DNA of 64,000 nt, taken from NCBI GenBank assembly GCA_048213135.1, contig PS015023.1, forward strand, positions 112,314 through 176,313. Direction: 5' to 3'. Origin of the DNA: Reclinomonas americana ATCC 50394 (Eukaryota). Shown piece by piece: positions 1-63,826 of the stretch; positions within the stretch are counted from its first letter, which is position 1, and every line of letters starts with the position of its first letter. A program made the position numbers and the translations under genes. The notes under the pieces are model-generated. The model was not told the origin of the DNA, ran no database searches, and saw nothing but the letters and a program-made list of their open reading frames with translations.

Positions 1-542
1 CCTTGCGCTCAGCGAATCCCTCAGAGAAGAACTAGCAAGCGTGTGAGTTTTCCCTGTCCGCGTGAGTGAGTTGAGTGGCTCTCACCTGCTTGAGGGCAAT
101 CACTGGTGTGTAGGAGCACTCGTTGCGCAGAAACTGCACAGGTAGACACGGAGCAAGAGGTGAGAGAGATGTGGGAGAGACTGGATGAGGGCACATGCTT
201 AACTTTGAAGACGGTCTCCATGAACCGCTGGTCCGTCTTGGAGGCAAAGTGGTAGCCGCGGTCGGCCAAGTGCTTGCTCAGCGTACGCGAGAAGCGCACA
301 AACATGAAGCTGAGCAGCTGCAACAGCATCACTGGATCACCGTGCTCCACGCTGCGCGGGAAACAAGTGAGATGAAATCAATCTCTCACACACTCACACG
401 CATCGATATCCCATCTCGCGCGCATATGTTTTTAAGCATACACACACACGCACCTTCTCCAGTCCACTGGCAATGGGCAGCGCACGTGTCGCAGTGCCTT
501 TTGCAGGCGCTCCACATTGTTGTGCAAGTCGCCAGTCGACAT
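1..542 (-). CDS. CEP44: Centrosomal protein CEP44, 5' part (runs off the window start)
   Basis: Exons 542-454, 351-204, 133-86 and 31-<1 splice to MSTGDLHNNVERLQKALRHVRCP...GDPVMLLQLLSFMFVRFSRTLSKHLADRGYHFASKTDQRFMETVFKFLRNECSYTPVIALKQFFSEGFAERK. This fits the CEP44 N-terminal pattern (MxTGDL...GDP...K.D.RF...GFAE.K). Confidence 0.88.
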
Positions 543-729
543 GGAAAAAGGCGTAACAATCAACCACCTTGCGTGGACGACTCACTCTCTCTCTCTCTCT
601 AGCACACAAGAGAAAAGCCACAGAGTGAGCACAAGCAACTCCCCTCACAAAGTCTGAGAGTCGGTCCGTGATGGGCCCCACTGACAACCTGCAAATCAGT
701 GTCCTAGTACCAGAAACGGTTTTTCAGTG

Positions 730-3700
730 ATGAGGCGAGAGAAGAGTAGCAGCACCCGGCTGCTTCTGGCAGTGGCGGCCACTGCTGCTGTGGTGGTGGT
801 AATGATGCTGGCGGTGGTGGTGGTGTCCGCAGAGACCACAGTGCACTTGCGTCGGCACGAGGTCACGAGCGACAACTCGGTGGCGTGGACTGCGCGTGCC
901 GAAGTGGAGGAGGAAGATGCCAAGTTGCGTGCCGCCCTCGCCCACCACCTGCTCCATTGTCATCATCCTCGTCTCATCTCTCTCCCCATCACAGCGTGCT
1001 GCGTCACGTGCAGACACTGCACAAGCGACGCGTGTTGGCCGACGATGCGCCGGCGGGTGGCGAGTACCGCCAGTCGTACATTGTCGCGCTGGCGGCGGAG
1101 GCACTGAGCAGTGGCGCGCATCGAGCGCATGCCATTGACGACATTCGACGCACGCTGACTGTGCTCGAGGTGGCGAGTGCCGATGCAGTTGCGGCACACA
1201 CAGATGACAACGACAAGTGTTTTGTTGTGGCGAGAGAGGACTCATCATCGCACAGGTGGACGCATCGGAGCTTCCGTCGACCGAGGTGACGGTGTCGCTG
1301 TTGCCGCCGAGTGGTGTGCTGGTGTTTTGCACGCCGCAGACGGCCCGCGCCATTCAGGAGCTGCCGCAGGTGGCGTGGATTTCATTGTTCCGACCGGAGC
1401 ACAAGTTGAGCGAGTCGGTGGAGAACCTGGACGAGGCCGTCGAGGAGGACAACCAGGAGTATGTGGGCGAGGCTCGTGCGCAGCAGTTGGTGGAGCGCAG
1501 TGCCAGCCTGTTTGGCGATCGTCTTGGCGAGCTGCGCAAGGCGTTGAAGCGTTTGACTCGCACGGCGCGTTCCTACCGGCTGGGCCTGGGTCGCGACGTG
1601 CTGCAGACCACGTTCCGTGTGGAGTTGGCGGCTCATCCGGGCGAGCTGACTGCCGAAGGGTTTGCCGAGGGCCTGCGCCAAGTGCTGGCCGATCGTTTGC
1701 CTGGGCACGGTACTTATACGCTTCCTCTCTTCCTTTGCATTGTGACCTTCGCTGTCTTGAGCGCTCATTCTCTTTGAGTACCTCTCAGTGCACGTCAAGG
1801 CTGCTCGCGACATGGTCCTGGTGTCGGTCACCGGAAGCGATGCCGAGTCCGCTCTCGGTCTCCTCTCGAAGATTCCCCGTGTGACGTGGGTCGAGGTGCG
1901 CCCACTCATTTGCCTTTCTGTTTTTGCACGCCTCCTTTGCTGATTCTTTTCTCCGCACAGCGCCATGCTCCGCGCCGCATCATGAACATGCACGCTCGCG
2001 GCATTACGCAGTCGGGCACACCGGCGTCGGCTCCGTTCGCCAACGTGCTGACTGGCGAAGGACAGCTTGTTGGTGCGTGTGCGCCGTGAGCATCGCAAGA
2101 CCACTCTAGATCTGACCTGTGCGTGACAGCGGTGACGGACACTGGTGTCGATACTCGCTCCTGCTTCTTCCACGACAAGGNNNNNNNNNNNNNNNNNNNN
2201 NNNNNNNNNNNNNNNNNNNNNNNNNNNNNNNNNNNNNNNNNNNNNNNNNNNNNNNNNNNNNNNNNNNNNNNNNNNNNNNNNNNNNNNNNNNNNNNNNNNN
2301 NNNNNNNNNNNNNNNNNNNNNNNNNNNNNNNNNNNNNNNNNNNNNNNNNNNNNNNNNNNNNNNNNNNNNNNNNNNNNNNNNNNNNNNNNNNATCACGAGG
2401 TGCCGTTCACTCGCACGCCGGACACTCTGCCGTCGTCACCGCACCGCAAGGTCCAGGGCTACTGGAGCTTCATGGACGGCCACGACGTGGCGCACGGTCA
2501 CGGCACGCATGTGGTATGTGGTCACGAATGTGTTTCAAGGAGAGTGCGGGAAGAGGCTGAACATGGCTTTTGCCCCTGTAGACTGGATCGGTCACTGGTA
2601 ACGCGGGCACCGACGCCATCCTCAAGTCGTCGAATGGCATGGCGCCGAATGCTCGACTGCTGTTCACCGACATTGGGTGCAGCAACGCAGGCGGCTGCAC
2701 GTGCCCGGCCAATGTGCCGTGCGACTGTGACCTGGAGGCGACTGGCAAGTGCAAGCCCGGTGGCGGCGCACTGTACATGCCGCTGTCGATTGACGGCTCA
2801 CTGCTGCCGTTCTCGTACCGCAACGGCGCGCGCATCTCGTCGAATTCGTGGGGTTCCAGCGAGAACAGCTACTCGCTGTCGTCCAAGTCCCTCGACATGT
2901 TCACCTATGAGCACAGAGTTTCGTGCCGCCGCCCTCTCACTCAACCAAACGCTTTACACACTAACACTGTGATGGTGCAGGACTTTTTGCAGCTGTTTGC
3001 CGCCGGCAACAGTGGCGACGACGGCTTTGGCACACTCGGTTCGGAGGCCAACTCGAAGAACGTGCTCGTCGTCGGTGCTTCGCACGCCTCGAGCGACGCG
3101 TACGCGCTGGTCACCAATCAGCTGAAGGACTTTGATGATGTGGCGGTGGAGATTGGCGCCCTGATCTGGGAGCTGTACGACTGCGACTTGGAGGAGCTGC
3201 CGACCAGTGAGTATACTCTCTTCTCGAAGAAGGGATTGTTCGCCTTTGTCTCACGTTGATGTGTGTGGCAGGCAACTGCGAGTTCGCCAAGCGCATTAAT
3301 GCCTCGGCCTCGTGCTGCGACACCGAGTCGGAGGTCTGCAAGACGCCACTGAAGGATGCCAACAGCACCGCGTGCGGTTGCGTGTTCCCTCCTTCCAAGA
3401 TCGACCTGGGCAACATTTGCTGCAAGTCGTGCGCACAAAAGTCCGTCGCTCGTCTCACCGACTACATTGCCGGCCCGCTCTCCATGGCGTCGTTCAGCAG
3501 CCGCGGCCCGACTGGTGACGGTCGCATCAAGCCGGATATTGTGGCTCCGTTGCGCCCCCCTCTCACTTGTTTCTCGTGCACCTCCTCCTGGAAGCTCACG
3601 AGCAAAACAGGGGAGCCGTGATTGTGTCGGCACGCGCGTATGACACGCAGGAGTCGGATCATGTGTGCGGCGCGCAGCCAGGTTGGTGATCTTGTCACGA

Positions 3701-4967: not shown

Positions 4968-7797
4968 TTATCGAATCGTGGCCAGCTGCAGCCACGTGCT
5001 CCAGTCGTCCACTGACAACTCGCCGTCGACCTCTAGTGACTCCGGGGCCTCGGCAACCCACGAGGCAACGGGACGGTACGGCCCATACACGCCGTGCTTC
5101 TTGAACTTGCACGAGCCAGGAAGCAGAATCTGTGCACTCGGAAGAACTCAATCGAAACGCGCGACAAGTCGCCTCGAGTCGAAAGAAACCATACCTCGGC
5201 ATACCGCGCCAGCAAAAACTCCACAGTCTTGCACCAGTAGTCCTCGGAAAGTGCTGGATCGGCGGGAAAGTCGACAAGCAGTGCAGCGAATTCAGCTGTG
5301 CACAAAAGGGTGAGCAAATTTGTGCGACGACCACCAGTATCCCAATCGATCGCGCGTGACGCAACACCACAGCGACGGCCGCGCCTCCACCAACGCCTTC
5401 ATCGTCGCCTGCTGCAACTCCAGTTGCGCACCACCAGGCAACCTCCACTCGGGAAACACCAAATGAAAGCCGTCGCGCACCTGTGCGGACGCGTGTCAGC
5501 CGTCGTGCCACGTCATCATCATCGCACGCCACGTGTTTCGTTGTTTTTGTCGAGCAAAGACGACGACGATGTTGTCTCGTGCGGCTATCCTCGTGTTGAT
5601 CCTCTCAGTGCTCTGCATTGCCTCTGTCTACGCGGCCCGACCGCCGGTGAGCACTCCGCGTGCAATCGCCTCAACGACGAACAACATGTGCGATCCACGC
5701 GTGCCTCACTCATCATTCTCCCGCTTCTCTCTCCTCGCCTCTGTATGCGCGTGTGTCTGTGTGCGTACGTGCTCTCTCAGGACTTCCCACCCGACGATCA
5801 CGTCATCCCACTGACAGGTCAAGACCCCATTCCGGCACCCTCGCGCGAGGACGTTGACCGACGCACACGCGAACGCGAGGAGGCCGTCATTCGCCAGAGT
5901 GGCAAGGTCTGTCCCCGCCCACCTTCTCCCCCTTCCCACCTCCCTCAGACACTGACTCGAGAGAGTTGTCTCGCTCACACAGACGCAGTATCCGTTCGGT
6001 ATGATGACGAAGAGAAAGAGAAGATGCAGATAGGAAGAATCTGCGTGACTGACTTCGTGCTGCAGCGATCGAGGATCCCAACATCCAACACGACGTGCTG
6101 GTGTGGGACGGCGGACCACCGTCCACCATTCCCGATCGTGACATTGAGGTGAGAGAGAGAAGGAGTGGGATCAAACAAGTTCGAATCTCGCTCAAAAGCA
6201 CTCTCTGTCTCTGTGCAGCTGTGGCAGTCATCGGTGTGGTCTGGTGGCCACTTTGGTGTTGGCTTCGGCAACACCACTGTCACGCTCTTCGAGTGTGCCA
6301 TTCCCGTGTGCGATCTGAGCAAGAATCCTGCCTACTCGGTGGTGCAGGTGCGGAAATCTGCGTAGGCGCTCTATCGCTGTCACTGTCTCACTGGTGGTGC
6401 GCGTGCAGAACAAGTGCGAGTTCCCGCTGGTGGATCCCCGCCGCGCCATCACATGGACGGCGACGGCATTTGGTGCCGATGCATGTTGCGTATCCCCATT
6501 TCTCTCCCCTCTTTCTCTCTCTCTTTACACATACTGACGATGTGCACGCAGTGGGACCTGGTGAACCCGCCTCGTTCCCCATGGACTCGCACTGGTTTGT
6601 GTCGCTCTCTCGCGGTGCCATTCACGTGCGTCACGACTACTGCCATCTCCCACGCAAAAAAGTGCCTCACTGCGCCTCCCTCTGCAGACCTATGTGCGCC
6701 ACCCGCCTCCCGACACTGCGTGCCCCACCCATCTGACCACACACATGGTGGCTCGTCTGCTTCTCGTCTCGTACGGTCGGCCATGAAAGAAAAAGGAAAG
6801 AAAGAGACCGACGTCTACCCCGTGCTCTCCTCCCACACCGAGTGCACAGGGACAGTGAAAGCCTCCCACTGTGTGTGTGAAAGAGTGTGTTCTCACCGCA
6901 GTGCCAGTGGGTCGATCGAGAGCGTAGGGAGCCGAGCGCGCCAGCAACAAGACTCGAGTGCGCAAGCCGCGCGGCGCAAGCGACAAGAGCACGCGCGCCA
7001 GCTGCGCTGCCATAGTCACCACGTCGACAGTACGCTCGACCGCACCACTCGCCGGCAGCACGCAGTCCAGATCCACATCCACAAACACGGGCATGTCCAC
7101 GGAGGTGTCGCCGAGGCGCTCCGGAATCTCCATGAGAAAGAGCGAGTTGCCGTGCTCGTACGTGTCACACGGCACATCCAGCAGGTCCTCTCGCGCCAAC
7201 TGCGTCACCGCTACTCCCTCCGTCAGCACCATTCCACCATCTCCAAACACTCGTTCGAGGAGGGCGCGTACCCTCAGCGTACAACTCGAGAAACATGCGA
7301 TGATCGTCGGCAGTCGGCAACAGAAATCTCCGATCGCTGCGCATGCAGTGATGTGTGGCCACCGTGCGCAGCTTGCCCGGCGTGTTCTCCGGCAAGTGCA
7401 CTTGCATTCTCACCCCAGAGCCTGCGCAGAGAAGAACTCAGTCAACATGGAGAGTGTGGGCGAGAGAGAGAGAGGGAGGGGGCGAAAAGTGTGACTGACT
7501 TGCCGCCACCATGGCCGCCGCAGTGACCTCCGAATCCAGTCGCTTTCGCACGCGCTTGGCCGAGCGAGACTCCGACGACACCTCAAACGCACGCATCCAC
7601 TGGTGCAGGCGCAGAACAGCAGGCAGTGGATCACGTGACTGAGAGGCCTCTGTGTGCACACACACACACACACGCACGCATCATGTGTGTGGGTGCTTGT
7701 GTATCAGGCACAGAAGAAGTGTCGACTTACCCGCTGCATAGGCCGGGCGATACGCTGCAAAGCCCTCCGTGTAGGGTCGATAGTTGGGATCGCCCAT
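4968..7797 (-). CDS. Archaeo-eukaryotic primase (AEP) catalytic-domain protein of NCLDV/herpes-primase type, 7 exons, about 350 aa
   Basis: The spliced product reads THHCM..FLLPTADDHRMFLELYAEAV..LFLMEIP..PVFVDVDLD (motif I), then after intron 6896-5481 VRDGFHLVFP (motif II), then WCKTVE..ILLPGSCK..GPYRP..LATIR*. All junctions are GT-AG and phase-compatible. Confidence 0.78.
5569..6786 (+). CDS. Small secreted protein of unknown function, nested antisense in the AEP gene intron
   Basis: Signal peptide MLSRAAILVLILSVLCIASVYA. Seven phase-consistent GT-AG introns with branch-like ctgac/ctcac motifs. Ends ...LLLVSYGRP* at 6784-6786. Confidence 0.72.
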
Positions 7798-7875: not shown

Positions 7876-8587
7876 ATGACTGTTCCGGAGAAGGTGCCCG
7901 AGTCAGAGGAGGCACCGCTGCCGCCTGACGGACCCACAGTTGCGCGTGACATTCTTCTCTCTCTCTCACTCTCTCTCTCACACACTCTGAGTGCTTGCAG
8001 ATTGGTCGCGCCACCTGGACGTTCCTGCACTCGCTGGCGGCCAACTACCCGCGACGCCCATCGCCAGAGTTGCAACGCACAGCCACTGTCTTTATGGAGG
8101 TGCGACATTGTGTGTGTGATGATGATGCAAGCATGCTCACATACAGAGAGAGCGCAGTCGTTTTCTCGATTGTACCCGTGCTCAACGTGCGCGGAGCATC
8201 TGCGTGAGGTGATGAAGGGAATGCCGCCGGAGACGTCGTCGCGAGAGGCCTTTTCCATGTGGATGTGTCGCGTGCACAATGAGGTCAATGCGGTCACTGG
8301 CAAGCCCGTGTTTGATTGCTCCAAGTGGCGAGAGTACTATGGCGACTATGATGGTGCGCCTTTTGTGTGATTCACAGTCTCGCCAGTGCACTGAGACGCA
8401 TGGTTGTGTGTGCATGTGGGCAGACGATGGTGACGAGGACGCGGAGAAGAAGGAGTGCAAGAAGCCTGCGTGTAACGACGCAGCGAGTTTCCAGTCGATG
8501 TTTGGGATGAACAAGAAGGCCACGCACCTGGTGGCACCGTCGCCGCCCAATGCCGCCATTCGTAAGGAAGTCGTCACTGACTCATGA
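7876..8587 (+). CDS. ERV1: Erv1/ALR FAD-dependent sulfhydryl oxidase
   Basis: PPDGPT|IGRATWTFLHSLAANYP...LYPCSTCAEHL...WMCRVHNEVN..GKPVFDC, with a C-terminal CKKPAC. Confidence 0.93.
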
Positions 8588-11700: not shown

Positions 11701-14700
11701 CCACCTGCAGTTGCAGCTTCCGGGCTTGATCTTGCGCCGCAGCGGCCTTCACATGCAGAGCAGCGCGTTGATCTTTTTGCTCCTGGAGCTCCTCGAACGC
11801 TGCGTCCAGCTGCGCACGAGCCTCCACCAGATCGCGGTTCAGCTGCTCGCCACGTCGCTTTGCTGCATCGCTCTCCGCTTCGCACAGCTTCACTTGCTCT
11901 TGCAGCTGTTGGGCATGCGCACGCAGTGCGTCCATTTCCTCGTCTCGCATCGACTGCAATGGTGGCGACAGCAAGTCAGGAAGCGTACTACCTCCAGGAG
12001 GAGCTGAGATGAAACACGACGCAACATCGCCCTCGATAATCTCCTCCTCCACTTCCCCATCGCCAGCGCCACTGCTGTTGACAGAGTCGCCCACCACGGA
12101 ACTCTGCACACCGACAATCAGTGAATCAAGTCGTCGAGATGCAAATGGAGGATGACGAACCGGCAGTGTCGGTGCCCAAGTTTCCGTGGCCTTGGTCTGC
12201 CACACAGTTAGCATCGTGCACACTGGGTGATATCGCATCAGGGACTCTCACCGGTGACTCCACCACGTGCGACTGCGAGGGTGGAGACGACCACAGTGCA
12301 CGGCGAGCGGCGGCCGGAGCAGCGGTGGACGATGGCGAAGACGATGAGCCTCCTCTTGCTGACGGCGCCGCATGTCGCAGCTCGCTTCGTAGCGACGCGG
12401 TCAGGGCGATAAGACGATCATTCTCTGCGCGCACTCGGTCCAACTCCTCGCTCGCGTCGTGTCCCAGCTGCGAGATTAGAAGGGGGATGAATGCAAAGTC
12501 GCCGTGTCTCTCTACAGTAAGGCACATGTACACACCGACTCGGACAAGTCGGCGGCAGCAAGTTTGTCGGCCCTTGCGCGCTGGTAGTCACGCTCAGTGT
12601 TCGCACTCTGTAGCTGCTCCGCCATGACCTCGTTGCTCTTGACGGCAGCCTCCAATTTCTGCGACACACACGCACACTCAAATAATGAGCATGGGAGTGG
12701 ATTGCTTGCAAATGCATGGCACCTTCTGCGCACCTGGTGCACTTCGGCGACATACTCATCCTGCACGGCCTTGAGCTTCTCCATGGAGGACGCAATCAAG
12801 TCGCGCTCCTCCACCGCTGACTGCAGACGAGAGTGCATCACGAGACGCTCCGCTCGCCAGTCGGAGCCCTCTTGCCACGTCTCGCGTTCCAACTCGGCTC
12901 GCTGCACCTGGTGCTCCAGTGAACGGATGGTCGCAGTGTGCTCCTGTGTGTACACACCCATACAGCGTCAGAGTTCTGCACCTTTAGAGGCCATCGGGAA
13001 AGACAAACAACGCACCGCCTGCCGATCCTCGTTGATGCGCACAATCTCGTCGACCTTGTCGCACAAGTCGTTCTGCTGCCGCTCCGCATCCTCCAACTCG
13101 CGCTGCAGATCGGCGTTTTGTGCGCGCAATGATGCGATGACCTGCATGGGAGCCATGAGAAAATGCACAAATCACGAGAGAGGTCGATGGCAAATGCGAG
13201 CGAACCTCTTCTGCGGCCACCAAGTCGCGCTTGGTGACAATCGAAGTGCGCCTGTACTCCTCACACTCACTCCGCAGTGCATCAGCCTCTTCCTGCAACG
13301 TGGAAGCCGTTTGTTCGACTGTGCGCAGGCGCGCAAGTTCAATCTCCAAGTCGCCCCGCACAGCCTCCAACTCGTCCTTGTCACGCTGTGGTGGTGCTCC
13401 CACAGTGAGAACGACGCACGATAGATTGTTAATACTCGCTCGACCCAACCTGCAGTCGAGTGTTCTCAAATGAGCGACGCGATGACTCCTCATGCGACTT
13501 GTCGGTGACGCGCTGCAGCGAGGTCGACAGTTCGGCATTGGTCTCGCGCAATTGCGTGTTCTCCGCCCGCAGAACAGCCAGCTTCTCGGTGGCCGACTGC
13601 GCCGCCTCCTGTTGCCGACGAAGCTGATCGGCGAGGCGCTCATTTTCCGACTTGAGCCGCGGCACGTCGGCTTCTGCCGAGCTCAGGTGCAGTTGCAGAT
13701 TGGCCAGCTGCGAGAACCAAAGTAAGAAATCGAACTCTCCTTTGTTGCCCTCCTTCTCCCACCCCTCCGCCACACCTGACTGGCCATCTCTGCCGTCTTT
13801 TGCGTGCGCTCCATCAGCGCATCGCGAGCTTGATCCAGTTCACCACACAATTCGTCCTCGCGCTCTGACACGGCGCGCAACTGCTCCGCCAGCTGCTCCA
13901 GTTGCTGCTGCTGCACGGCCGACTGACGGTGTGCCTTGTCGAGCTCACGACACGCTGGAAACACAAAGTGCATCCATGAGGACATGGCGTGATTGGAAGC
14001 ACCATTGATTCGCTCACCAGAAGCCCGCGAGTCCTCAATCGCATCGCTTGTCTCGCGCGCCGTCTCCAGATCGGCTTGCAGTTGGGCCGCACGACGCGCT
14101 GCATCCAGTGAGTCGTTGCGCACATTCTCCAGTTCCTGCGACTGCGCGCGCAGCTCGTCCATGGCCGCATCACGCTGCGCTTGCAGGTTGCGCTGGACAG
14201 CTTGCGACCTAGCGAGTTGCTCCTCGACACCAGCCAGAGTCTCGCGCAGAGCCGCCTCTTCGGCCTGCGCTTGTGCAAGTTCATGGGTGGCCTCGGCCAG
14301 CGCTCGTCGGTCGGCGTCTACACAATTGCACACATTGGCGGCGAGGATACGCAACATCTACACTTGTTGGGAGACTGCGCACCGTGTTGTTCCTGCTGCA
14401 TGGCCTGCGCCTGCTGCGCCACCTCCAGAGAACGGGTCAGCGACGACACTTGGGTGTTGGTTTGGAACGCATCGCGTCGCGCCTCGTCCAGCTCACTCTG
14501 CAGGTGCTCGACCTCCTTGGCACGCGCACCGCACTGCCAACACCATGCGGCTGAGAAGAGTATGTGAGAAAGAGCAGATTCAGTAACACACACATACCTC
14601 CCTGTCGAGACGCTCGGCAGCCGCACGCTGCGTGTTCAGTTCTTCCTCCAACGCCTGCAGTCGATCGGCGGCCAGTTGCAGATCGGCTTGCAGATCACCT

Positions 14701-46379: not shown

Positions 46380-48880
46380 ATGTTGAGTCCGCATAGCAGA
46401 ACGTCTGCGGCGAGTTCGACAATGGGGGTGGTGGCGTCGGGAACTCCGCGGTCGTGGCGAGCGGAGCAGAATGCGACTTTGCGTGCGCGTGTGCAGGCCA
46501 AACGCGATGGGGTGCGGGCGGCGGAGGAGGACACGGCAGAGGGTACGTGGTGTGAAAGAGAGAGGAGAGTGGGGAGAGAGCAGGGAGAGAAGGGGGAGAG
46601 AAGGGGAAAGAGTGAGTAAAGTGAGAAGAGAAAGTGTGAGTGTGTGTGAGAGAGAGAGACAGAGGAGTGTATGTGTGTGTGAGTGTGTGTGTGTGTGCGT
46701 GTGTGTGAGAGAGAGACAGAGAGAGAGCAGATCTGAAGCTGCATGTGATCGGAGTATAGCAGTTTTTGTCTTCTCTCTTTTCTCTCTCTCTCTCTCTCAT
46801 TCCGCCCACAGAGGTGGCCGCCTTTGAGCACTCACTCGGCCTTCGATTGCACTTGCCGGGCACTCGCACCCGCGCGACGGTGGCTGGCCAGCGCGATCAG
46901 GAGCACCTGGAGAGCAAGGTATTGTGCTCGTGCTGTATGGCTGTGTTTCTCCGTGCTCGCTGACTCGGCGGGGTTTGACAAGGTGACTGGTGTGCGTGTG
47001 GTTCGCTCGCCGCCGGCTGTGCCGTCGCCGCTGCCGTTCCACTCGTATGAGCGGCGACTGACCAAGGCGGAGCCGCTGGAGAGTCTGCCAATGTCGCCAC
47101 CGGCATCGCAGCGGCCGCGCTCGGCCAGCCGACGCAGCGCACCGCCGTCTTCTGCGGCCGCGGTGGACGAGAACGAGCTGACGCAGTTGCTGACGTTTCG
47201 TCGGGAGTCGAACCTGCCGTGGTACTCGAGTCGCGGTGCGAGCGACCGTGATGCCATGGCGGCGAACGAGGGACTGGTATTGTCGCCGGTGACGTCGGCC
47301 AGGAGGGAGCCGCATTCGACCAGCAATAACTTGGGCACCGGCATCACTCCGCGCTCGGTGCGCTTCGAGGAGCCAACGGGCCACCAGTCGCCCGAGGTGC
47401 CGCGCTTGATTCTGGATTCGACACGTTTCCGCTTGCCGCCGAAAAACTATGGTGCGTCGGCAGAGATGATGGCGAGACAGAATGCGTCGTCATGCTAACT
47501 GGTGGGAGGGAGAGATGGGGGTGGTGATGTCTGCTGTCGGTGGTGTGTCCTTCCTTTCTTTTGTTCCTGTCTGCTCACTCTACTGCACAGATAAATCGGT
47601 GAGGTCGAATGGATCGTCGTCTGCAGGCCAGTCGCCACAACCGACCACACTGCGGGAGAGACGGTTGGCTCGCTCCAACAGTCTCGGAAATGGCGACTCG
47701 TCGCGGACACTGGCCTCGAGCCAGTCAGTTGTGTTGCGATGCTTTCTCGCCTCCTTGTTTGTACGTTGCCTTAACAGCATGTGTCATGGTTGTAGACGTG
47801 GAACTACTCGCACCGAAAGACCGATGTGGCGCACGTGTCGCTGCACAGCGAATCGCAGCTGTCGGATCCACACCCACCGAACCATGTCGTGTTTAAGCGA
47901 GCGGCCACAAGTCGCACGTTGCTGGAGCCGGTCTACATTGGCGCACGAGACGAGGTGTGTCGTCAGGTCCTTCTTATTGTTGTTGGTGTTGTTGCTGGTG
48001 CTGGTGCTGACGATCGAGGTGATTAGGACGTGCAAGCACCACCCGTTGTCAAGCACGACAAGGACTTTGTGCCATTGCGGCACAGGGATCCACTCTTTGT
48101 GCTGGAAGACGAGGAGACGAAGCGAAAGGATGCCGAGGCTGCTGAGCGCATTCGTCAGGCTGAGCGCAATGATCGGGAGGTGGCCGGTGCGCAGCGCCGT
48201 GTGGCGGTCGTGTCGCGTGTGCAGGAGGCGGTGCACAAGCTGAGAAGTTGCGTGTCGCGTTCTCTGGAGAGCGCCCCGAGCGCGGGCTGATTAACGTGCG
48301 GAAAACAGGGCAATCCGACGGTGCATTCCGCGACGCCTTGCTTCGACAGGAACCCTTTGCATTGCGCAAGCTGGACGAACTGCGGCAAAAGAAGGAGTCG
48401 CAGGATGAGTACGAAGCAGCGCTGCGGACGGGTCGCATCTCACCACCACCTCCACCACCTCCGCCTCCCATGCCACCATCCCGGTCGGGGTCGCGGACCA
48501 AACTTGCCAATAGTTGTGGTGGTCGTGGTGGCGAAAACGGGTGGGACTCCGCAGCCACATCGGCTTCGTCCGCGTCCGCCTCGTCGCGCGGTTCGCGTTT
48601 CCGGTCAACATCGTATGCTGCGTACGCAGTTCCGGGGTCGCCGGCCCACCAGCCGGTTCAGGTGTCGAGTTTGGTGCGGTACACGTCCACGCTTCAAAAG
48701 GAGACGGCTCGGCGGAAAGCCGCTCTCGCCCCCACACTATCGAGGGAGGAGAAGGAGGAGGTACGTTCGTGCGCTGCGGTGCGTGCGTTGTCGCTGACTG
48801 ACCGCGTGCACGGCACACAGATTGCGAACAGTATGGACGACATGACGAATTTCGAGTTGCGCATCAATGGGTTTTTGTGA
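46380..48880 (+). CDS. Hypothetical low-complexity/coiled-coil protein
   Basis: Phase-consistent exons from ATG 46380 or 46422 to ...FELRINGFL*. No family recognised. Confidence 0.55.
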
Positions 48881-49082: not shown

Positions 49083-51095
49083 TTACGCTGTAAACAGTGC
49101 GTGCTGAGCTGTCGCGGCCACGTGGTCCACGGCCGGCATCTCGACGCATTTCTTCGCCACCGGCGCTGTGGTTTCTGCAGTGTCACCGAGTGTGACTGAA
49201 CCGGTGTCGACGACGCAGATGGTTGCGGTGTCTGGTGCTGGTTCCGTCTCTGCTTCAATCTCAGCCACCGGTGACAGCTCGTGATCCAACGGCAGAATCG
49301 TCGACAGGCGCCACACGTTGACGCGAGACCGCAACCGGGGTCGCCGTAGGAATTTGCGGATGGCATTGTTGAGGAAAAAGGGCAGCTCGACAGGCGCTGC
49401 AACCTCCGACGGAACTCCGCCACTGGCGCCCGCCTTCTTCTGTTCGTCCTCTCCTTGCTTGCCTTCCTCTTCGGCGCCCTTCTCCTCGTCAACGTCCTCC
49501 TCATTTTCCGTGTCCTCTGACTCCTGGTCACGTTGCCGCGAACCAGAACCGCCAGTGCCAGAGCCAGTTCGCCGAGAAGCTGGCGTGCCTCCACTACTAC
49601 TGTTCGCTGTTGAAATCCTGTGTGCGAATGCTCGAGCCTGCTCCGCCCACTGTTGTACACGAGTACATTAGTAATCAATATTGTGACGAGAGACGACAGA
49701 AAAACTGCAGCAATCGCTTACCTCAGCTTCCGTAAGACCATCTCGTTCTTCCTCCTCCATCGCTGCCTGAAGACCTTCAAGCACATCAGTGGGTGCCGCA
49801 CACAGATTAGCGTGATTCAGCAGCAAGCGCATGTGCGGAAGCGACCAGCGCTGGAAAGTTGCAGCCTCCTTATTGAACACAAAGCGGACGGCTCTGTTGC
49901 GTTCGCTGGTGATGTCAGTTGATAATAGCCTGCCGTCGGCCTAACATTGGAGTGAGGAGATATTGGATTGTGAACATCCGGCAGCATAAAACTGCACACG
50001 TAGACAGTACATACCGTGATATAAAGCGTTTGTTTGCTGAATTCAGTATGCTCAGCTTTCGTAAGCAACAGAGTGTTCCGTGGGCAGTTGACGACGTGTA
50101 CCAAGTTCTCGTGGGCAAACATGCAGCAGCGCGCTCTCAGTGTGTATTGTCGGCATTGCTAAAAGAAAGAACTCGCGACTGTCAGCCTATTAAATTAACG
50201 TACAATCAATTGCAGAATGGACTCTGTGACTCACCTGCACGTCGCACATGTGAGCCAGATCCCAGCCGGTCGCCTTTTCAACGCGGCGCAGTCCTCTGCG
50301 CACAGCCAGATCCATGGTGATGCGTTTCAGTCGCTGCAATCGTACGTTCACAAACACAATTGAGCAACGACTGCCGGTGCAATATGCAATGACCACCACT
50401 TATTCGTAAACCGTCTGGGCTGAGCGCATCTGTTCCGCGCATCTGGTTCGAGTTTCCTCGATCTCCTCCGCGCACCTGGCTCGAGTTTCCTCGATCTCCT
50501 CCGCACACCCGGTTCGAGTTTCCGCGACCGCCTCCGCGTGGCCCTGCTTGAGTTTCGAAACCTTACCCTTCTGGCGCTGCTTGAGTTCCGCAAGCTCGCT
50601 CTCTCGGCGTTGATGGAGTTCAGCAACCACCTCCGCATGGCGTTGATGCAGGCCTGCAACCTCCTCCGCATGGCGTTGATGCAGGCCCGCAACCTCCTCC
50701 GCATGGCGTTGATGCAGGCCCGCAACCTCCTCCGCACGGCGTTGATGCAGGCCCGAAACCTCCTCCGCATGGTGTTGACTAAGTTGCACGGCCTCTTTTC
50801 GGCACTGCTGGATCTCCTCCTCCAATTTCGCCACTTGCTGCTTGAGATGGTTCAAATACTCCGCGAGATATCCGTCGGTCGAGCTTTGTTGCACGACCGA
50901 CCGCGGATTCTCGTCCAGCGCATGCTGCTGATCACGATCACGAGGAGGAGCGCGACTGACACCGCGAGGCGGCGCCGGTACAGACGACTCGGCCGATGCA
51001 GCCGATGTTGCGCGTGACGCCGCTGGTGTTGTTGACGAGGCTACAGGCGCTGCTGATCGAGAACCAGATCCAGAGCCCCAGTCCCTGCGCCACAT
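49083..51095 (-). CDS. Coiled-coil repeat protein with a degenerate HNH-endonuclease-like domain
   Basis: Four introns join the 11-aa repeats to WDLAHMCD..VVNCPRNTLLLTKAEHTEFSKQTLYI..LPHMRLLLNHANLC, followed by an acidic tail. Confidence 0.62.
50445..50775 (-). repeat. Coding 33-bp tandem repeats (HAEEVAGLHQR about 5x; CAEEIEETR.R about 3x)
   Basis: The unit aacctcctccgcatggcgttgatgcaggcccgc repeats in frame. Confidence 0.92.
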
Positions 51096-51899
51096 TGTGA
51101 ATTCAGTCGTTGCGCAGTGATGAAGAAAGTTTCTGTCATCGAAACGTTTGCTGCGGTTGAGCTGGTGGGCGCACGCTGGTGGGCGGCCGCGGTTTACCGA
51201 TCTTGCCTGCTCCAATCGACCTCGCGGACCACGGACTGTCACACACACAGATTTCTGTGAGGAGGCAGGTGCTGTCTCTCTCTCTCTCACACACACACAC
51301 ATACACACACATACACACACACACACATACACACATTCTCTCTTTCTCATCCACTTGCACTGCGTCACTCACCGCCGTGGACTGCTGCTGCTGCTGCTGC
51401 GCGCACACACACACATACACATACACGCGCACACACACACACAATCTCGAATCGTTAGCAAGTAAAACCCACGACAACAGTCGCAAAGAAGCACACCTAT
51501 CCATTCTTGTCTCTGCAACGGGCGATCAAATCTAATCAAAGTCAAAATCATCCGTTCATCGTCCTTCCAACCGCACCTGATTCAATCCAGATCCGGGTCA
51601 ACTTGTTGCCGGCGCTGGAAGTCAAGGAGAAGAAGCAACACAGAGCAATGTTGCTGCATCACCGTTTCTATGGCCAACAGTTCCGCGTGCTGCGGCGACA
51701 TTGATTTGCAATCAATATCGCGAACTTCGCAAGCGCTGCCGTGTAGTTGCTACCAGGAGAAAGCACACGAGACTCCTCGATGCTCATTCTCTCTCCACAT
51801 GAAACTGTTCTCTCTCCCCGTCGCTGACGTACAAGTCGTCAAACGTCATTCGCGTCCTGCCACACCTCGATCTTCCACTACACCTCACTGCGATCCACC

Positions 51900-52279: not shown

Positions 52280-52451
52280 ACCGAAGGAACGGTGTGTTCG
52301 GACATTGTGCGCGTGGGCGATGTGTCTGCGCGACTGCAGCTCGGCTGTGTTATGGAACACGTGGGTGACTTTACCGCAGACGGAATCATGGGTGCGAGCT
52401 CTCTCCCACTGCACACGCACGCACACACACTCGTACCTCACTTCTGACGCA

Positions 52452-52489
<38 letters not shown>

Positions 52490-55400
52490 ATGCGGAAACA
52501 GGCCTCGGGTTCCCTCCTCCGAGCAACACCTTTGGCATCTCGTCGTTTCTGTACTCGGTCACGGTGCCGCCACCGCCCCTCTCGGAGAGTGCGTCGCCGC
52601 TGCCAGAGGACGACGATGTGCCGTTGGTGGATCGCGTGTTCGCTCTGCTGCTGTCGTCCAGTGGTGGCTTTCTGCAGCTCGGCGGCTTCGATCCCATTAC
52701 CATGGCGGGCCCGATGACTACACTGCCGGTGCTGAAGGCTGTTGCGTCGCGGACCCTGCCTCTTCTCCCTCTGGTCTCTCTGTCTCTCTGGTCTCTCTGT
52801 CTCACCTGCGCTCACTTCTCGCAGTGCAACCAACAACTCAGCTGTCACTTCACGTCGTACGCGCTGCCGGTGCAAAGCATCACCTTCCTCGGCTACCCGC
52901 TGCTGGAGACCAACGCCGTGTACTACCCAGCCATTGCCGACTCGGGCACCTCGTGCATGATCCTGCCGGACTCGGTGGGCGGTGCCTACAATCTGCGTCG
53001 CAGTCCCTTCAAGGTGTTTGCCGCGCTGGTTCTGGCCTTTGGCAGCACGCGTATCCTGAACGAGCGGCCGCCACTTAAAATGTGCGTGTGTGTGTGTTGC
53101 AATCGTGGAGACGTTTCTGTGTCTCATCGCGCACCGTGCACATTGCAGCACCATGGGTGGCCGCACGTTCCAGATTCCATTCGACGAGCTGCTCATGGAC
53201 CTCAAACCCGGCCTGCCCAACATCTACGACGGCAAGGAGACGAAATCGTTGTGCGTGAGCAGCAACGAGCACTCGCCGGACGTGTTCATCCTCGGTGATC
53301 CGTTCTACCGCTCGTTCTTGGTGGTGTTGCGTGCCGTGCGTGCCTTGTTGTGGAGCGCCTCTCCTGGCCTCACTCACTCTGTCGACACAGGCACGATCTG
53401 CGCGATGAGACCAAGCCGGTGCTTGGTGTGGCGCACCGCTCTGGTGTGGAACCTCGGCGGCAGCGCGACGGCGCTGGTGCGACGTCAGTTGGTAAGTTGG
53501 TGTGCTTGCTGGAGGTGGTGCCGATGATGGTCGTGTGTTCAGTCGTGTGGTGTGCGTGTACAGTGGGAGCTCGCAATGCGATGGGCCCGCAGCTGCCTGT
53601 GGCGTTTGAGGTCTCTCGAGTGCAACTGGCCTCGATGAATTCGGATGGCTCTCGACCGCGCCGATGGCGGCCAGCGCCGTCGGCCGAGGAGTTTATGCAT
53701 GCGATTGGTGAGGGAGGGAGAGGGAAAGGGAGGGAGGGAGGCAGGGAGGGCGAGGTGGGAGATATGACAAGTCAGAAGTGAGCTTCGTCTCTGCAGTATC
53801 GAAAGCTGTCTTCTGTGCCGAAACAGGGGTTGTCTGCGCTGGTTCCGCTTGCGGTTGAGTTGGTAGCTGGCATAATGGCAGCTCTCTTGAGAAAGCTCTC
53901 TTCCTGTCACATCACACGGAAAGGCGTTTTGCGTGAGAGTGTGGCAACTGGCACAGTGGCGTCTATCTTGGGAAAGCTCTCTTCTGTGCCGCATGCCGCA
54001 GAAATGGGGGTTATCTGCGCTGATTCCACTTGCGGTTGAGTGGCGACCGGCGCAGTGCTCTCTTCTGTGTCACAGCACTTGGAAATGGGTTCTTGTTGCG
54101 GGTTCTGCGTTTGTGTGATGCCAGCTTTGTTGATGTAGAGCGTCATGTAGAAAAGGAGTGTGCGTGTGGTTGCTTCGTGAGTTTGTGGCAACTGTCTCCA
54201 CGGCAGCTGTGTCGGGGCGATCTCTTATGACACAACACGCGGAATTGGGTTCTCCAAAGTACCCATTTTCTGTTCTGTGTCTCACCCAGCACTTGTGTCC
54301 TTTTCTCGTTCATCTTCTCCCCCTCAGCTCTCTCCTCTTCTCCCCCTCAGCTCTCTCCTCGTTTCTCATCCACCAAATTGCCGTGCAGATCGACTGGAGA
54401 GCGGCGGTCGCACTCGCAGTGCACCATCATCGCCTGCGCCCTCATCCACGGTCGTGGACGGCGCACGACACATGTTGCGCCTCCTGGAGACTGAAGCTTC
54501 AACGTCACCTGCCGGTGACGTGCAGTGGGCGGAACTTCACCGCGCTCTGCACACGGCGCTGCGCAACTGGGATGCCTCACCACTGGCCGCCGACACGAGT
54601 GCCATGTTTCACAACACCTCCACCGTGCGCCTCGACACACTCCAGGACGTGTTGTGCGTAGCTTGTCACCGCACGGCCATGGCATGGCCCCCTCTTCTGC
54701 TCACGCGTATGTCGCGCAGGTATACGGTCCCAGTGTACATCGGCACACCACCGCAGGAGCTGCATTTGGTGATCGACACAGGCAGCTCTGCAATGGCCTT
54801 CTTTGTGGTGCCTCCGGGCTACTGGATGCGCATCCTTGTCGGCTCCATGTTGCGTCATCGTACGCGTGCGCGCACACACACGCTTGCTTACCTTTGTGCA
54901 CTCACCGCTCCGTGTCAGAGTCCTCTGTGTCGTCGTCTCCCTGGTGGCCATGCTGGCCGTGACATGGCGTCGCCGCAGTCGCCGCCCTGCCGCCAAATCA
55001 CCGCCGACGTCGCCGCGCCTGCGACATCAACATCATCACCATCACCACCACCACAGCCACCATCACCATCACGGCCACCACCTGCGTGGCTCGCAACACC
55101 GCCACGAGTGGCATTCGTTCGACTCGGCGGAGGAGAGTGACATGGAGCTGGGCATGCAGGCGCTCATGGACAAGCACAGACTGCGCGAGATGGACGTGTT
55201 GGCCGACGTAGTGGCCGTGCGGACCGGTGACAGCACCGGCCTGCCGCTGGCCACCCTTGCCAGCAACGGCACAGCATTGAGCACAGCTGTAGCAGGAACA
55301 GCGACCTCGGCAGCAGCAGCAGCAGCAGGAGCGACCTCGACACTCAGTGTCGACAGCATCGTCGCAGGCACCGACGTGCATGTGGACGGCGATCGAGGAG

Positions 55401-59955: not shown

Positions 59956-62001
59956 GCTGGCTGAGGCGCAAAAGATCACTGTTGTCGTCGCGCGTGAGGA
60001 GACAAAGAGAAAAAAACACACAAAATGGAAATGCTCAATCAACCTTCGGGTTGGTGGTGTTGTTGTCTTGTTGAGTTGTTGTATGGCGGATAGTTCGCGG
60101 GTGGCATTGCGTGTATGTGTGTGTCTGTGCGTTCGTGTCAGCGTGAGAAGGAGGTGATGAAGAGGAACTGCGGTTGAGGTTGAGCTGATTGAGTGGAGAG
60201 TTGAGGTGTGACAGGCTTTTTGCCCGATTTCCAATCGAACAGCATTGCCGAATCCGTACACCATTTTGAAGTTCTTATTCTGGCCCTCGTCAGCGGTGCC
60301 TGCAGCAGTGGGATGGAGGTGCGCGTGCATCAGTGTGTGCTGCATGTGGAGGCGTGTCTCTTATTGTGTGTGTATGCGCGCGTGTCATGATGTTGTCGTG
60401 TCGGTGCATGCATGCATATGTCGTGCGCATTTGCCGGATTCGGTGACTGCACGGAAAAAAGCTCATGCAGTCTGGCCACGCAGCGCCTGTTGCTTCTCTC
60501 TCACACACTGCCTCGTTGGCAGCTGCTACTACTCCTCTCACATTCCTCGCCATCGGAGCGTGCATGTGCGCTCTTGTGCGAGTGGCTGGCTTTCTTTTTG
60601 AGCACTGCATCAGTTTCGAAATCGGACACTGAAAATCGAACGCGGTACCGCACAGCGGTGTGGGAGGTGTGGGGGCGACTCGTCACTCGCTTTTCTCTGC
60701 TTCACTGATGCAGCAGTACCCAGTGTCTTTCTTCTGCTTCTTCGCCGTCGTTCCCGTTGAGCTGATTGATTTGCACGAGCACGGTTCCACGAATTGAGGC
60801 AAACGATCGCCATTTGCTTTGATTTTGATTTCCTTCTCCCTCTGCCCCTCCCTCATCGCCCCCACTCAAATGCAACACAGCAGTCAACTTTTGTACATTA
60901 CGATGCATGGACATGTCATCTACAAATACGCAATGATTACGCCTTCAAGGAGACGGTATAAAAAAGGGGGGGTACGCCACATCAACGAGAGAGAGCGGCT
61001 GGCGAGGCGCGCTCTTGCAGTCTGCCACGATAGATTGCCCGGTGGGGGAAAGGAGATTAAAAGAGAATGTAACGCGTCAAGGACACGCGAGGATAGCGCA
61101 CGGGTAAAGGAGAGCAGGAGTGAGGAGGAGGAGAGAGGTGGGCAGGCAGACACGAATTATCGATAGTATCGATTACGAGCCAAAAATGCATCAGCGGGGG
61201 GTGTGAGCAGTGGGGAGGCACGGAGCGTGTGGCCAGTGACGCGAGGAGGAGGGTGGATTGGGGTCGGGGTTAATGAGCCGACGGCAACAGCAGGGGACGG
61301 GCAAGATGGGGAGACAGCGGCAGCAGTGACAAGCACAAGGCAGCGAGGAACGAGACCAATAAGTGTGCCATGGTGGCCGTGCGTGCATGCCCAGTGTGTG
61401 GCGACGAGAGAGTGTGTTGTGTGGCTCAGCTGTTACACCATCGAAAATGCCGACACACACAACACAAAGAGAGCGAGAGGAGAATTGGCAGAGACGACGA
61501 CGGGTGAAGCGTGCATGTGCGTGTGCGCGACGCGTGAAACTAGGCGTACCAAAATAACGCGCGCGCGCACAACACACACCACACCTCGTGCCCGCGTCCC
61601 ACACCTTCCCATTCTCTCACTCTCAATGTGCCATGTGTGCAACACTCGATAATCTGCTCCTCAATAGGAGGGAGGAGCAGTGGTGCGATTACAGTGATAT
61701 CGGCCTGCCACACAAGCACACAAACGCGCACGCACACACACAAGAGACAGTACAACGCGACGACCACCCACAATGACGCACACACAATAGGGCTGATCTC
61801 GCCTCACCACCTCGCCTCGAGTGTGTCACCACCACCGCAGCCACCACCACCAACTGCCCGCCGTTCGTCCCTGCCGGCCTCGATAGCCCGCCAATATCAC
61901 ACCGCTCGTGCTCGTCGTCACGTGGTCCACACGCCGTGCAGTCCCAGACTGTCACCTAGGTTAAAAAAAGGGGGTCGGGGTGGGGGTGGTGGAAGGACTC
62001 C

Positions 62002-63826
62002 TCAAGCCGCGCCAACTTGAATGGCGAAGAAGAGGTTGGAGTCGGGCTGCGCCTGCACCGTCGTGTACACGCAGCCGGAGCCGCAGCGACCCGGCGCCTG
62101 CAGCATCTGAAACACCTCGGTCTCGTCGCCAAGGCGCTCGGCCAGCGATTCCGGACGCGGCGCGTGAGCCGGGCGGCGATCGTAGACGCCATTCGACTTG
62201 CGCGAGCCGTGCACGAATTGCGGCGTGTTGAGGTGGATCGAGTGGGTGAGCATCTCCGACCACAGGCTCAGCTTGAAGTGGAACTTGGGCGCGTACACCA
62301 GCTTGCGGCTCTGGCCATTGGCCGAGGCGCGCTTCTTCGGTCCGTCCTTCTTGCACTTGAGTTGGTAGTGCATCTCCACAATGACAAAGTCGTCCTTGGA
62401 GTCGGCCGGGTTGAGCGTGTCGACCGTGATCGACATGGCGGTCTTGATGAACTGGATGTCGGGGTACACCAGCTCGCCCGACGGCGACATCTCCAGGAAG
62501 TCGTGACCATTGTGCGAGAACAGCTCCAGGTCGGCGTTCCAATCGACGTAGCGCGCGTGCGGCACGCGGAACACGAATTTGTAGCGGAGCTTGGCATTGT
62601 CTGTGTGGGAGGGAGAGAAAGAGTGAGATCAAGGGGAAGGGGAGAACAATAAGGAACAAGTGAGAGGAAAACTCACCAGGACCGAGGACCTCGGGGAAAC
62701 CAGGCAACCAGGCGCCGCGCTGTGTGCTCTCGAGCACCACAAACGTCAGCGCATGCGGCTGCAGCGACTGGCGAATGGCGTGGCACAAGTCGGCCGGTGG
62801 CGTGCCAGCGTCTTGCGGCGCATACGGCATCTGCTCCAGCTCATCCTCCGTCGGCGCCACACGGAAAGTCTCCGGCAGACGCGACGACAGGCCACTGGCG
62901 CCCACCATCGACGGCGTCATGTCGGCCGAAGCCGAGTAGTTGTACGACAACTCGCGCTTGATCTGTTGCTGCTGCTGCGGCACGGCGGCAGTCTCCTGCA
63001 GCTGCTGCATTTGCTGCAAGTGACGCGCCTGTTGCAAGTAGAACACCGCGGCCTTGAGCACCTCGGGCGTGAGTCCGGCCACACCAGCCGCCGCGGCAGC
63101 AGCGGACGGCGACATGGGCGAGCCAGCAGCCGACGACGGCAAGTAGGCGGACACTGGAGCCGGCTGCGGCACCGGCGGCATCGCGTACTGCATGGCGTAC
63201 TGCGGCGGCGCCATAAACACCGACGGCTGCGCGTAGTACGGCGACGGTTCCGGTTCGAAAGCGGGCGCCGGCATCGCGGAGCACGCCATAAACTGCGGGA
63301 ACGGGAGAATTTGAGCATTCGGAGTTGCTCGCTCGCGACGCCGCGGCGCGGGAATTTCTTACTGCAACGCAACTGCTTGCTCCTCTTCGGCCTCGTCAAA
63401 CGCCACTCCATCAAGATGACCGCCGGTCTCCGAGTCGGCCGCACCCGGCTGCCCGCTCATGTACGACAAGGGCATCATGAACGACGGGGCAGAGGCAGTG
63501 GCGGCTGCGGAGGCGTCGTCCCAAGCCGATTCATCACCGCCATCCCACATGTCCACGTCGCCGTCGCCCATCTCCACGAGAGCAGACGACTCGGCGAATG
63601 ATGCCACGTGGCTGGTGGGCATGGAGGGGCCGCCGTGCGCGCCACCACCAAAGGAATCGTCGTGGTGACCGTTGAACGGTTCGAGGTATTCGCCGGCGAC
63701 AGGCGCTGTGTGTGCACAAATAGATGAGAAGGCGATGCACACAGCGCCGGTGACGCGTTACACAAAGGAGGCGCAACTGATGGGTGGCTCCCACTGGAAG
63801 CGATCAGAGGTGAAGCGGTGGAACAT
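62002..63826 (-). CDS. Putative transcription factor, paralog B
   Basis: Three introns, including one at the same position as in paralog A (VLGP|DNAKLRY). Shared IVEMHYQLKCKKDGPKKRA..RKLVYAP.FHF..NTP.FVHGSRKSNGVYDRR. Confidence 0.7.

Follow-up and report, generated by a model that had tools for sequence, protein, structure and literature searches.

A second, abundant class of 5′ splice sites in a 64 kb window of Reclinomonas americana DNA that may be read in a shifted U1 register

The DNA analysed here, a 64 kb stretch of a eukaryotic scaffold from Reclinomonas americana (contig PS015023.1; hereafter the window) with a G+C content of 58% and a single 211-N gap, carries genes for a subtilase, pepsin-like aspartic proteases, DNA2, an Erv1/Alr-domain protein and a MED10-like protein. 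Exons are short and introns very short, with a median intron length of 68 nt and an interquartile range of 62–79 in the self-trained gene parse, and CTNAC-like motifs lie ~15–18 nt upstream of the CAG acceptor. Besides the normal 5′ splice sites (donors) of the G/GTGCGT type, where the slash marks the exon–intron border, the window contains donors of the form non-G/GTTGCGT. On the evidence of our gene models, this second donor class is very probably real and abundant and resides in ordinary-looking GT-AG spliceosomal introns. Pairing with U1 small nuclear RNA (snRNA) in a register shifted by one base is the best-supported, though still tentative, reading of these sites.

Gene models were obtained with our own Viterbi generalised hidden Markov model (HMM) parser, which learned its models of coding sequence, intron composition, acceptor and length from the window itself by self-training. 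In the donor-blind version (the blind parse) the donor model consisted of the dinucleotide GT only. Of the 282 introns that it predicted, 197 lie on the winning strand, which is the one with the better coding score, and the other 85 on the losing strand. All GT sites were ranked by a donor-blind local score combining flanking coding potential, acceptor and length. For the informed parse, a two-component donor model learned from the blind donors was returned to the parser, which then gave 186 introns on the winning strand; because this parse depends on the motif, it serves only to estimate abundance.

A preliminary description of this DNA had listed 34 donors (the listed sites) at which GT is preceded by A, C or T and followed by a G at +6, and the letters at all 34 coordinates bear this out. 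T occupies +3 in 33 of them, most being GTTGCGT or GTTGCGC, and all read non-G/GTT(G/T/A)(C/A)G with the sole exception of 34494 (GTCACG). The blind parse recovers 25/34 of the listed donors exactly and the informed parse 31/34, while 34494, 37224 and 203 are recovered by neither. GTTGCG is the commonest donor hexamer in the blind parse, that is, without any donor model: it makes up 92 of 8654 GT sites (1.1%) yet 23 of the 282 donors in that parse (p = 1e-13 in a binomial test with n = 283), and these donors fall on the winning strand (23/197) and never on the losing strand (0/85; p = 2e-4). Similarly, 13/29 GTTGCGT and 21/92 GTTGCG sites are among the 5% of GT sites with the highest local score. 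When an unsupervised position-matrix mixture was fitted to the blind donors, the Bayesian information criterion preferred two components, xxa/GTTGCGTG (25%) and caG/GTGcGt (75%). The class makes up 28/197 (14%) of the blind winning-strand introns, 20/125 (16%) of the blind high-quality introns, 36/186 (19%) of the informed introns and 28/130 (22%) of the informed high-quality introns, a measured share of ~14–22% that agrees with the earlier estimate of near a fifth. The informed parse adds six class candidates beyond the listed sites, and in 29 of the 36 predicted class introns the frame stays open only if the intron is removed.

Such a class could also be an artefact or a relic, with junctions misplaced by frame-based guessing or with the motif representing the end of a recently spread introner. 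The blind parse did miss 9/34 sites, and in-frame alternatives exist at several, e.g. 33692/33698, 25799/25794 and 34494/34512. However, the strand distribution of GTTGCG donors and the three junctions fixed by homologues (below) argue against misplacement, and an all-against-all blastn-short comparison of 170 introns yielded 0 pairs at E<1e-3 with similarity beyond the motif among the 34 class introns, which argues against an introner. We regard this explanation as very improbable.

Junctions were scored by comparing every frame-compatible GT-AG alternative with an HMM of homologues. As judged from these comparisons, three class junctions, 2918, 3549 and 53326, are precisely fixed by homologues. 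The class introns of the subtilase gene are as follows.

924..994, plus strand: ccaa/GTTGCGTGCC, 71 nt, phase 2, in the N-terminal part of the subtilase; listed, blind parse, local score 26.1, frame needs its removal
1188..1255, plus strand: tgca/GTTGCGGCAC, 68 nt; unlisted, blind parse
2918..2980, plus strand: caga/GTTTCGTGCC, 63 nt, phase 0, subtilase; listed, homologue gap, best of 7 alternatives by 20 bits
3549..3610, plus strand: ctcc/GTTGCGCCCC, 62 nt, phase 2, interrupting the subtilase motif KPDIVA-P-G; blind parse, best of 11 by 10.4 bits

When the homologues P0121–P0123 were aligned with the read-through frame, the gap comprised exactly the 21 codons of intron 2918–2980, with the flanks YEHR/DFLQLFAAGNSG, and removing 3549/3610 restores KPDIVAPG. 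The subtilase gene (730–4877, plus strand) crosses the assembly gap (N run 2181–2391); the two genes of the parser, 730–2089 and 2472–4877, are treated as one because P0121 aligns on either side (1283–2176 and 2400–4709). A first scan of metagenomes for related genomic loci found none. A second returned 80 loci with at most 37% identity over most of the query, a few of them exceeding 37% over short segments only, and these were taken as unrelated subtilases and not used.

Two adjacent pepsin-like aspartic protease genes, at 52050–53700 and 54390–55490 on the plus strand, contain three further class introns.

52741..52824, plus strand: ggct/GTTGCGTCGC, 84 nt, pepsin-like protease; listed, blind parse, best of 9 by 3.6 bits
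53326..53390, plus strand: tggt/GTTGCGTGCC, 65 nt, pepsin-like protease; listed, best of 15 alternatives by 12.2 bits
54849..54918, plus strand: ccat/GTTGCGTCAT, 70 nt, second pepsin-like gene; listed, informed parse only

Splicing at 53326/53390 gives ILGDPFYRSFLVVHDL, which aligns without a gap to LLGDVFFRRMVVVHNL of the homologue P0130, and at 52741..52824 the alignment of P0130 has a gap of 28 residues, corresponding to the length of the intron. P0130 and P0131 hold both pepsin-like domains in one protein (DSGTS, later DTGSS), a hint that the pair forms a two-domain or tandem arrangement. Per-exon PDB searches with the pepsin-like gene gave no match. The 84-residue P0127 is 81–84% identical to a pepsin-like exon (window positions 52870–53106, plus strand) and continues into the equivalent of the intron, where the T/GTGCGTG donor is conserved. 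Since P0127 reads into the intron, an unspliced genomic fragment from a close relative is present in public data.

The genes for DNA2, the Erv1/Alr-domain protein and the MED10-like protein contribute six class introns.

40171..40236, plus strand: ccga/GTTTCGTATC, 66 nt, DNA2; listed, blind parse, best by only 2.6 bits on the DNA2 HMM
42023..42091, plus strand: ccga/GTTGCGTTCG, 69 nt, DNA2; listed, blind parse, best against the DNA2 HMM by 3.0 bits
7939..8000, plus strand: caca/GTTGCGCGTG, 62 nt, preceding the Erv1/Alr domain exon; listed, blind parse, local score 29.9
33624..33692, minus strand: acga/GTTGCGCTGC, 69 nt, MED10-like gene; listed, informed parse
33796..33855, minus strand: tcga/GTTGAGTTGT, 60 nt, MED10-like gene; listed, blind parse
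33940..34008, minus strand: agct/GTTGCGTGGA, 69 nt, MED10-like gene; listed, blind parse

The junctions at 40171, 42023 and 52741 are weakly backed by homology. For DNA2, the search turned up no protein of this genome or of a close relative. The best DNA2 homologue is 71% identical over a 277-aa fragment, and the named ones are fungal, including chytrids, with 55–75% identity over one exon. Homology-guided choice of junctions without splice-signal weighting over-fitted in unconserved stretches of DNA2 (39-nt 'introns', GC donors) and was rejected, so that only junctions within conserved stretches were used. In the same gene, homology chose the donor gcag/GTTGCTGTG at 41154 (plus strand; GDHLQ/LPPLV of DNA2) by 6 bits; this G/GTTGCTG site has an exon-end G and a GTTGC start with no G at +5 or +6, and suits neither class well. 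The Erv1/Alr domain (Pfam E=1e-21) occupies a single exon, 8001–8352 on the plus strand, and only the acceptor of 7939..8000 is pinned, because the Pfam Evr1_Alr match starts 2 residues past it. The preliminary description had called many junctions fixed by conserved motifs, which holds for the subtilase DIVAPG junction and only loosely for ERV1; CEP44, also named there, was not located. At 33692 the blind parse instead took a GTACGA 6 nt upstream, in frame. The exon ending at 33692 matches Pfam Med10 positions 64–95 (E=0.032), the sole per-exon Pfam match of the MED10-like gene, while a homologue search and a PDB search with the read-through frame of this gene gave no match.

Two other placements of the splice site were considered and rejected. 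Splicing at the second GT within GTTGCGT is contradicted at 2918, 3549 and 53326. A TT...GG intron moved by one base is biochemically implausible and would leave the mRNA identical only if exon 2 began with G.

The class is employed after exons that end in a base other than G. When 125 well-supported blind introns were split by the −1 base, a comparison that the preliminary description had proposed, GTTGCG, GTTGAG or GTTTCG followed G in 0/65 donors and another base in 20/60 (Fisher p=5.9e-8). After an exon-end G, 54/65 donors carry G at +5, as that description had stated for ordinary donors, although their consensus, G/GTNNGT, is looser than the GTGCGT or GTGAGT that it had given. Ranking by local score gave the same picture, with 0/18 GGTTGCG sites being donor-like as against 21/74 HGTTGCG sites (p=0.0097). 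T at +3 is also needed, since 21/92 GTTGCG sites are donor-like compared with 12/235 GT[ACG]GCG sites, which is the background rate (p=7e-6). Where the exon ends in A, C or T, the informed high-quality set has 28 donors of the class versus 20 of all other forms, ~7 of these being GTGCGT. One possible exception to the exon-end rule, G/GTTTCGT at 28073, was found.

28012..28073, minus strand: gaag/GTTTCGTTGC, 62 nt, a possible exception in which the motif follows an exon-end G; informed parse, local score 13.3; the blind parse took 28060 instead

All 36 predicted class introns begin with GT and finish with AG, and they are typically 60–85 nt long. The profile of the 28 high-quality informed members is given below beside that of the normal class at the position one base upstream.

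−1 in the class: A 54%, T 36%, C 11%, G 0%; normal class −2: A 41%
+3 in the class: T (by definition of the set); normal class +2: T
+4 in the class: G 93%; normal class +3: G 60%
+5 in the class: C 93%; normal class +4: C 43%
+6 in the class: G 100%; normal class +5: G 87%
+7 in the class: T 79%; normal class +6: T 52%
+8 in the class: G 39%; normal class +7: G 38%

The class profile parallels the normal one, and the class therefore resembles the best normal signal placed one base deeper, with T replacing the normal +1 G; the match to the moved profile extends over +3 to +8 and the A at −1 (n=28). In the normal class, +4 is C in 43%, T in 35% and G in 2% of donors. At the 3′ side, C occupies −3 of the acceptor in 25/28 class introns, and a YTNAY motif lies within 32 nt of the acceptor in 24/28 class introns (median 16 nt) and 75/102 others (median 18 nt). 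Length, phase spread, branch motif and acceptor show no visible difference between the class and the main class. U12-type introns, with their hallmark RTATCCTT donor and TCCTTAAC-like branch site near the acceptor, offer an earlier example of an intron class that exists in parallel and has a distinct donor motif. A U12-type identity was rejected for the introns described here, as their donor is GTTGCGT rather than RTATCCTT and their acceptor, branch motif, branch spacing and length match the main class. The downstream exon starts with G in 15/28 class introns versus 28/102 others (p=0.013), and this G may be an exon-2-side compensation for the weak end of exon 1.

The best-supported reading of these features, to which we assign a probability of roughly 45%, is that class donors are read in a +1-shifted U1 register. 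The UGCGU(G) block, which normally forms +2..+6 of G/GUGCGU and would pair with A7–A3 of U1 and later with the ACAGA box of U6, lies one base deeper in class introns, so that U1 would bind shifted by +1. Intron G+1 would then pair with C9, in the slot of the absent exon-end G, while U+2 would stay opposite C8 and the pairs U+3:A7, G+4:psi6, G+6:C4 and U+7:A3 would form; an A at the exon end could additionally pair with U10. The catalytic core would still direct cleavage to the GU, and U6 would probably have to accept the identical one-base offset. ViennaRNA, given GCA/GUUGCGUG and the U1 5′ end AUACUUACCUG, predicts a minimum-energy duplex in exactly the shifted register, with the pairs A-1:U10 and C-2:G11 as well. 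The U1 sequence used is the human one printed in PMC4856993 rather than that of this organism.

Several observations weigh against a shifted register. The predicted duplex is weak, at −2.1 kcal/mol equal to that of non-G/GUGCGUG, compared with −8.6 for the normal consensus; as the class duplex is no stronger than that of non-G/GUGCGUG, thermodynamics alone leave the preference for the class unexplained. At −1, T (36%) is unable to pair with U10, and G could wobble with U10 yet is absent; the moved profile accordingly mismatches at −1 in G and T, and there is no clear C at −2 (n=28). Compensation or sequence-space arguments, and not the register, would account for some of the avoidance of G: exons ending in G have many workable donors, so that the motif is not kept up there. 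The class also lacks complementarity at +4..+6 in the canonical U6 register, which makes it necessary to postulate a second offset at U6. Finally, every statistic derives from 64 kb and from our own gene models. The earlier proposal that the intron +1 G fills the U1 slot of the missing exon-end G draws support from the profile, the T at +3, the enrichment of A at −1, the excess of the class over non-G/GTGCGT donors and the minimum-energy duplex, and is weakened by the low stability of that duplex.

A more radical possibility is that the lineage has rewired its reading of the 5′ splice site, either through a changed recognition sequence of U1 (perhaps with a matching change in U6) or through a second U1 dedicated and directly complementary to GUUGCGU. 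The five successive near-invariant positions (+3 to +7) are what a dedicated complementary RNA would be expected to produce, the preference of the normal class for a pyrimidine at +4 is uncommon for a base that pairs with the canonical psi5, and the canonical U1 duplex is weak in both non-G classes. However, the 5′ end of U1 is very widely conserved across eukaryotes, and the two donor classes have a common acceptor, branch motif and length, unlike the U2/U12 split. A Rfam scan of the window found no family, U1 and U6 included, at gathering thresholds, and at E<=0.1 only three sub-threshold microRNA-like matches. We consider such rewiring quite improbable; if it were true, a fifth of the major-type introns would constitute a parallel class read by a separate RNA, and a split of the U12 kind would have arisen inside the major spliceosome.

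Both the shifted register and a '+2/+3' bulge register have been validated in rare human donors (Tan et al. 2016, PMC4856993). Of 201,541 human donors, that paper assigns 1.5% to all validated noncanonical registers together; for the +2/+3 bulge it gives 68 predicted sites, 54 after curation. The human shifted-register sites go back to Roca and Krainer 2009 and are described and re-measured in the same paper. The bulge register offers another account of the class, in which the duplex keeps its normal pairing (G+1:C8, U+2:A7), one U at +2 or +3 is bulged and GCGU pairs normally. The motif is exactly non-G/GTGCGT plus one additional T, and the requirement for T at +3 also suits a degenerate U/U bulge; the order of elements, GU, an additional U and then the consensus block, is that of the human +2/+3 bulge sites (Roca et al. 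2012; PMC4856993). In those sites, though, C9 is free for an exon-end G, which should help, yet no GGTTGCG site is donor-like, none of the 65 G-ending donors carries the motif, and the class here avoids an exon-end G. A bulged donor should moreover be weaker than non-G/GTGCGT, yet the class is several times commoner (28 versus ~7), and ViennaRNA favours the shifted register on the model site. Taking both sides into account, a bulged U appears unlikely.

The shifted register, by comparison, finds a close parallel in the human shifted-register sites as reported in PMC4856993, which have a GU donor, poor canonical complementarity and cleavage at the GU, with G+1 facing C9 and an exon-end A facing U10. 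The human model oligonucleotide ACA/GUCAAGUAUA of that paper has an architecture equal to that of the class. The complementary blocks differ (UGCGU here, AAGUAU in the human oligonucleotide), and the register proposed here is one that we infer from sequence. Abundance differs as well: against the 1.5% of human donors that use any noncanonical register, the one motif described here serves ~14–22% of introns and one third to over half of the donors after a non-G exon end. In the STAT3 tandem donor, noncanonical registers were proposed for both U1 and U6 (PMC11162779); that case concerns a single human exon, whereas here a recurrent class of introns is involved.

Donor classes that differ in their distribution of signal between exon and intron are also known. 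Two major classes, one AG//GUNNN, the other NN//GURAG, are reported for many species (PMC11732430), and LUC7 proteins have been linked to left- and right-handed donors (PMC11842720). The window resembles these systems in showing exon-side/intron-side compensation, the class being the intron-weighted partner of G/GTNNGT. The reported classes share one register and overlap continuously, whereas the motif of the class here is discrete and shifted by one base; within the normal class, G at −1 and G at +5 co-occur rather than oppose. Such systems raise the possibility that no change of register takes place and that a LUC7/U1C-type zinc finger, an SR-like factor or U6 alone reads the UGCG past the GU at a weak exon side. 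On this view the class would take the known intron-weighted donors to an extreme, two compensating donor classes being established in many species (PMC11732430, PMC11842720), and the excess of G at the start of the downstream exon hints at compensation beyond U1. Reading by a protein or by U6 leaves unexplained, however, the exact one-base displacement of the normal consensus and the need for T at +3, and we consider it rather improbable. On the sequence comparisons, the class appears to behave as the human shifted-register sites do, in the role of an intron-weighted class, and to differ from both in its discrete displaced motif and its abundance. No description of a GUUGCG/GTTGCG donor was found in the searchable literature, which leaves out subscription papers and supplements and beside which a lineage-specific report may exist.

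The remaining class introns and candidates of the window are listed here.

197..203, minus strand: listed candidate donor tcaaa/GTTAAGC; recovered by neither parse
5296..5365, minus strand: tggt/GTTGCGTCAC, 70 nt; listed, blind parse, local score 23.7
6485..6551, plus strand: gcat/GTTGCGTATC, 67 nt; unlisted, blind parse, local score 26.3
11954..12025, minus strand: cgat/GTTGCGTCGT, 72 nt; listed, informed parse only, local score 16.3
15106..15167, minus strand: ccaa/GTTGCGTGAC, 62 nt; unlisted, blind parse
18591..18665, plus strand: tgca/GTTGAGTGTG, 75 nt; listed, blind parse, local score 27.5
18752..19047, plus strand: weak candidate, acca/GTTGAGTGAG, 296 nt, long and repeat-rich; listed, informed parse only
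19995..20064, plus strand: tatc/GTTGCGTGGC, 70 nt; listed, blind parse
20551..20620, plus strand: tttt/GTTGCGTCGC, 70 nt; listed, blind parse
25737..25799, minus strand: acga/GTTGCGTCAT, 63 nt; listed, informed parse only (the blind parse took the GT at +6 with a different acceptor)
30090..30159, minus strand: ggca/GTTGCGTTTT, 70 nt; listed, blind parse
30291..30369, minus strand: gaga/GTTGCGGCAT, 79 nt; listed, blind parse, local score 26.3
31708..31768, plus strand: ctga/GTTGCGCAGT, 61 nt; listed, blind parse
32494..32554, plus strand: weak candidate, atta/GTTGCGTTTT, 61 nt; unlisted, informed parse only, local score -8.8
33126..33189, plus strand: agcc/GTTGCGTACA, 64 nt; listed, blind parse
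34494..34589, plus strand: listed candidate donor GTCACG; recovered by neither parse; the parser preferred the in-frame alternative 34512 (tgat/GTTTCGCTCA, GTTTCGC) with the same acceptor
35002..35400, plus strand: aact/GTTGCGCTTG, 399 nt, GA-rich; listed, blind parse
35508..35571, plus strand: gcat/GTTGCGTGCT, 64 nt; listed, blind parse
35720..35791, plus strand: caat/GTTGCGGGGA, 72 nt; listed, informed parse only
36185..36252, plus strand: actt/GTTGCGATTA, 68 nt; listed, blind parse
37224..37303, plus strand: listed candidate, tggt/GTTGCGTAAT; recovered by neither parse, no coding signal upstream
47728..47795, plus strand: variant, gtca/GTTGTGTTGC, 68 nt; listed, both parses
48247..48308, plus strand: agaa/GTTGCGTGTC, 62 nt; listed, blind parse
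51085..51145, minus strand: candidate, aaac/GTTTCGATGA, 61 nt; unlisted, blind parse, weak local score 3.6
63293..63373, minus strand: agca/GTTGCGTTGC, 81 nt; listed, blind parse
63706..63777, minus strand: atca/GTTGCGCCTC, 72 nt; listed, blind parse

The commonest 7-mers of the window as a whole are (CA)n, (GA)n and (CT)n microsatellites, which are mostly intronic. The few long introns are filled with repeats, e.g. 35002–35400 and 18752–19047, and repeats also occur at 37101–37303. The coding exon at 50412–51083 (minus strand) contains tandem 11-residue repeats (AEEVAGLHQRH...), which on the opposite strand produce a series of GGAGGTTGCGGGCC-type motif sites, none of them a donor. Paralogous genes at 57248–59009 and 62017–63703, both on the minus strand, have in common a ~200-residue C-terminal domain (NAKLRY...VEMHYQLKCKKDGPKKR...) and an intron position just upstream of it; the domain gave no Pfam match and no usable Protein Atlas match. 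Single-exon domains recognised elsewhere in the window are the following.

21416–21613, plus strand: RF-1/ICT1-like GGQ domain (Pfam E=1.5e-10)
42705–43175, minus strand: YTH domain (Pfam E=7e-23)
56042–56740, plus strand: OTU domain (Pfam E=4e-8)

The two donor classes bear on how genes are predicted in this organism. A single-matrix splice-site model blurs both classes, and our donor-blind parse misplaced several class junctions through in-frame slips, so a register-aware or mixture donor model is needed. If the shifted-register reading is true, R. americana would offer a natural system in which a noncanonical register of U1, and probably also of U6, is routine rather than exceptional. One could then test directly by what means the spliceosome sets the cleavage site irrespective of the position of U1, and how much freedom of register U6 has.

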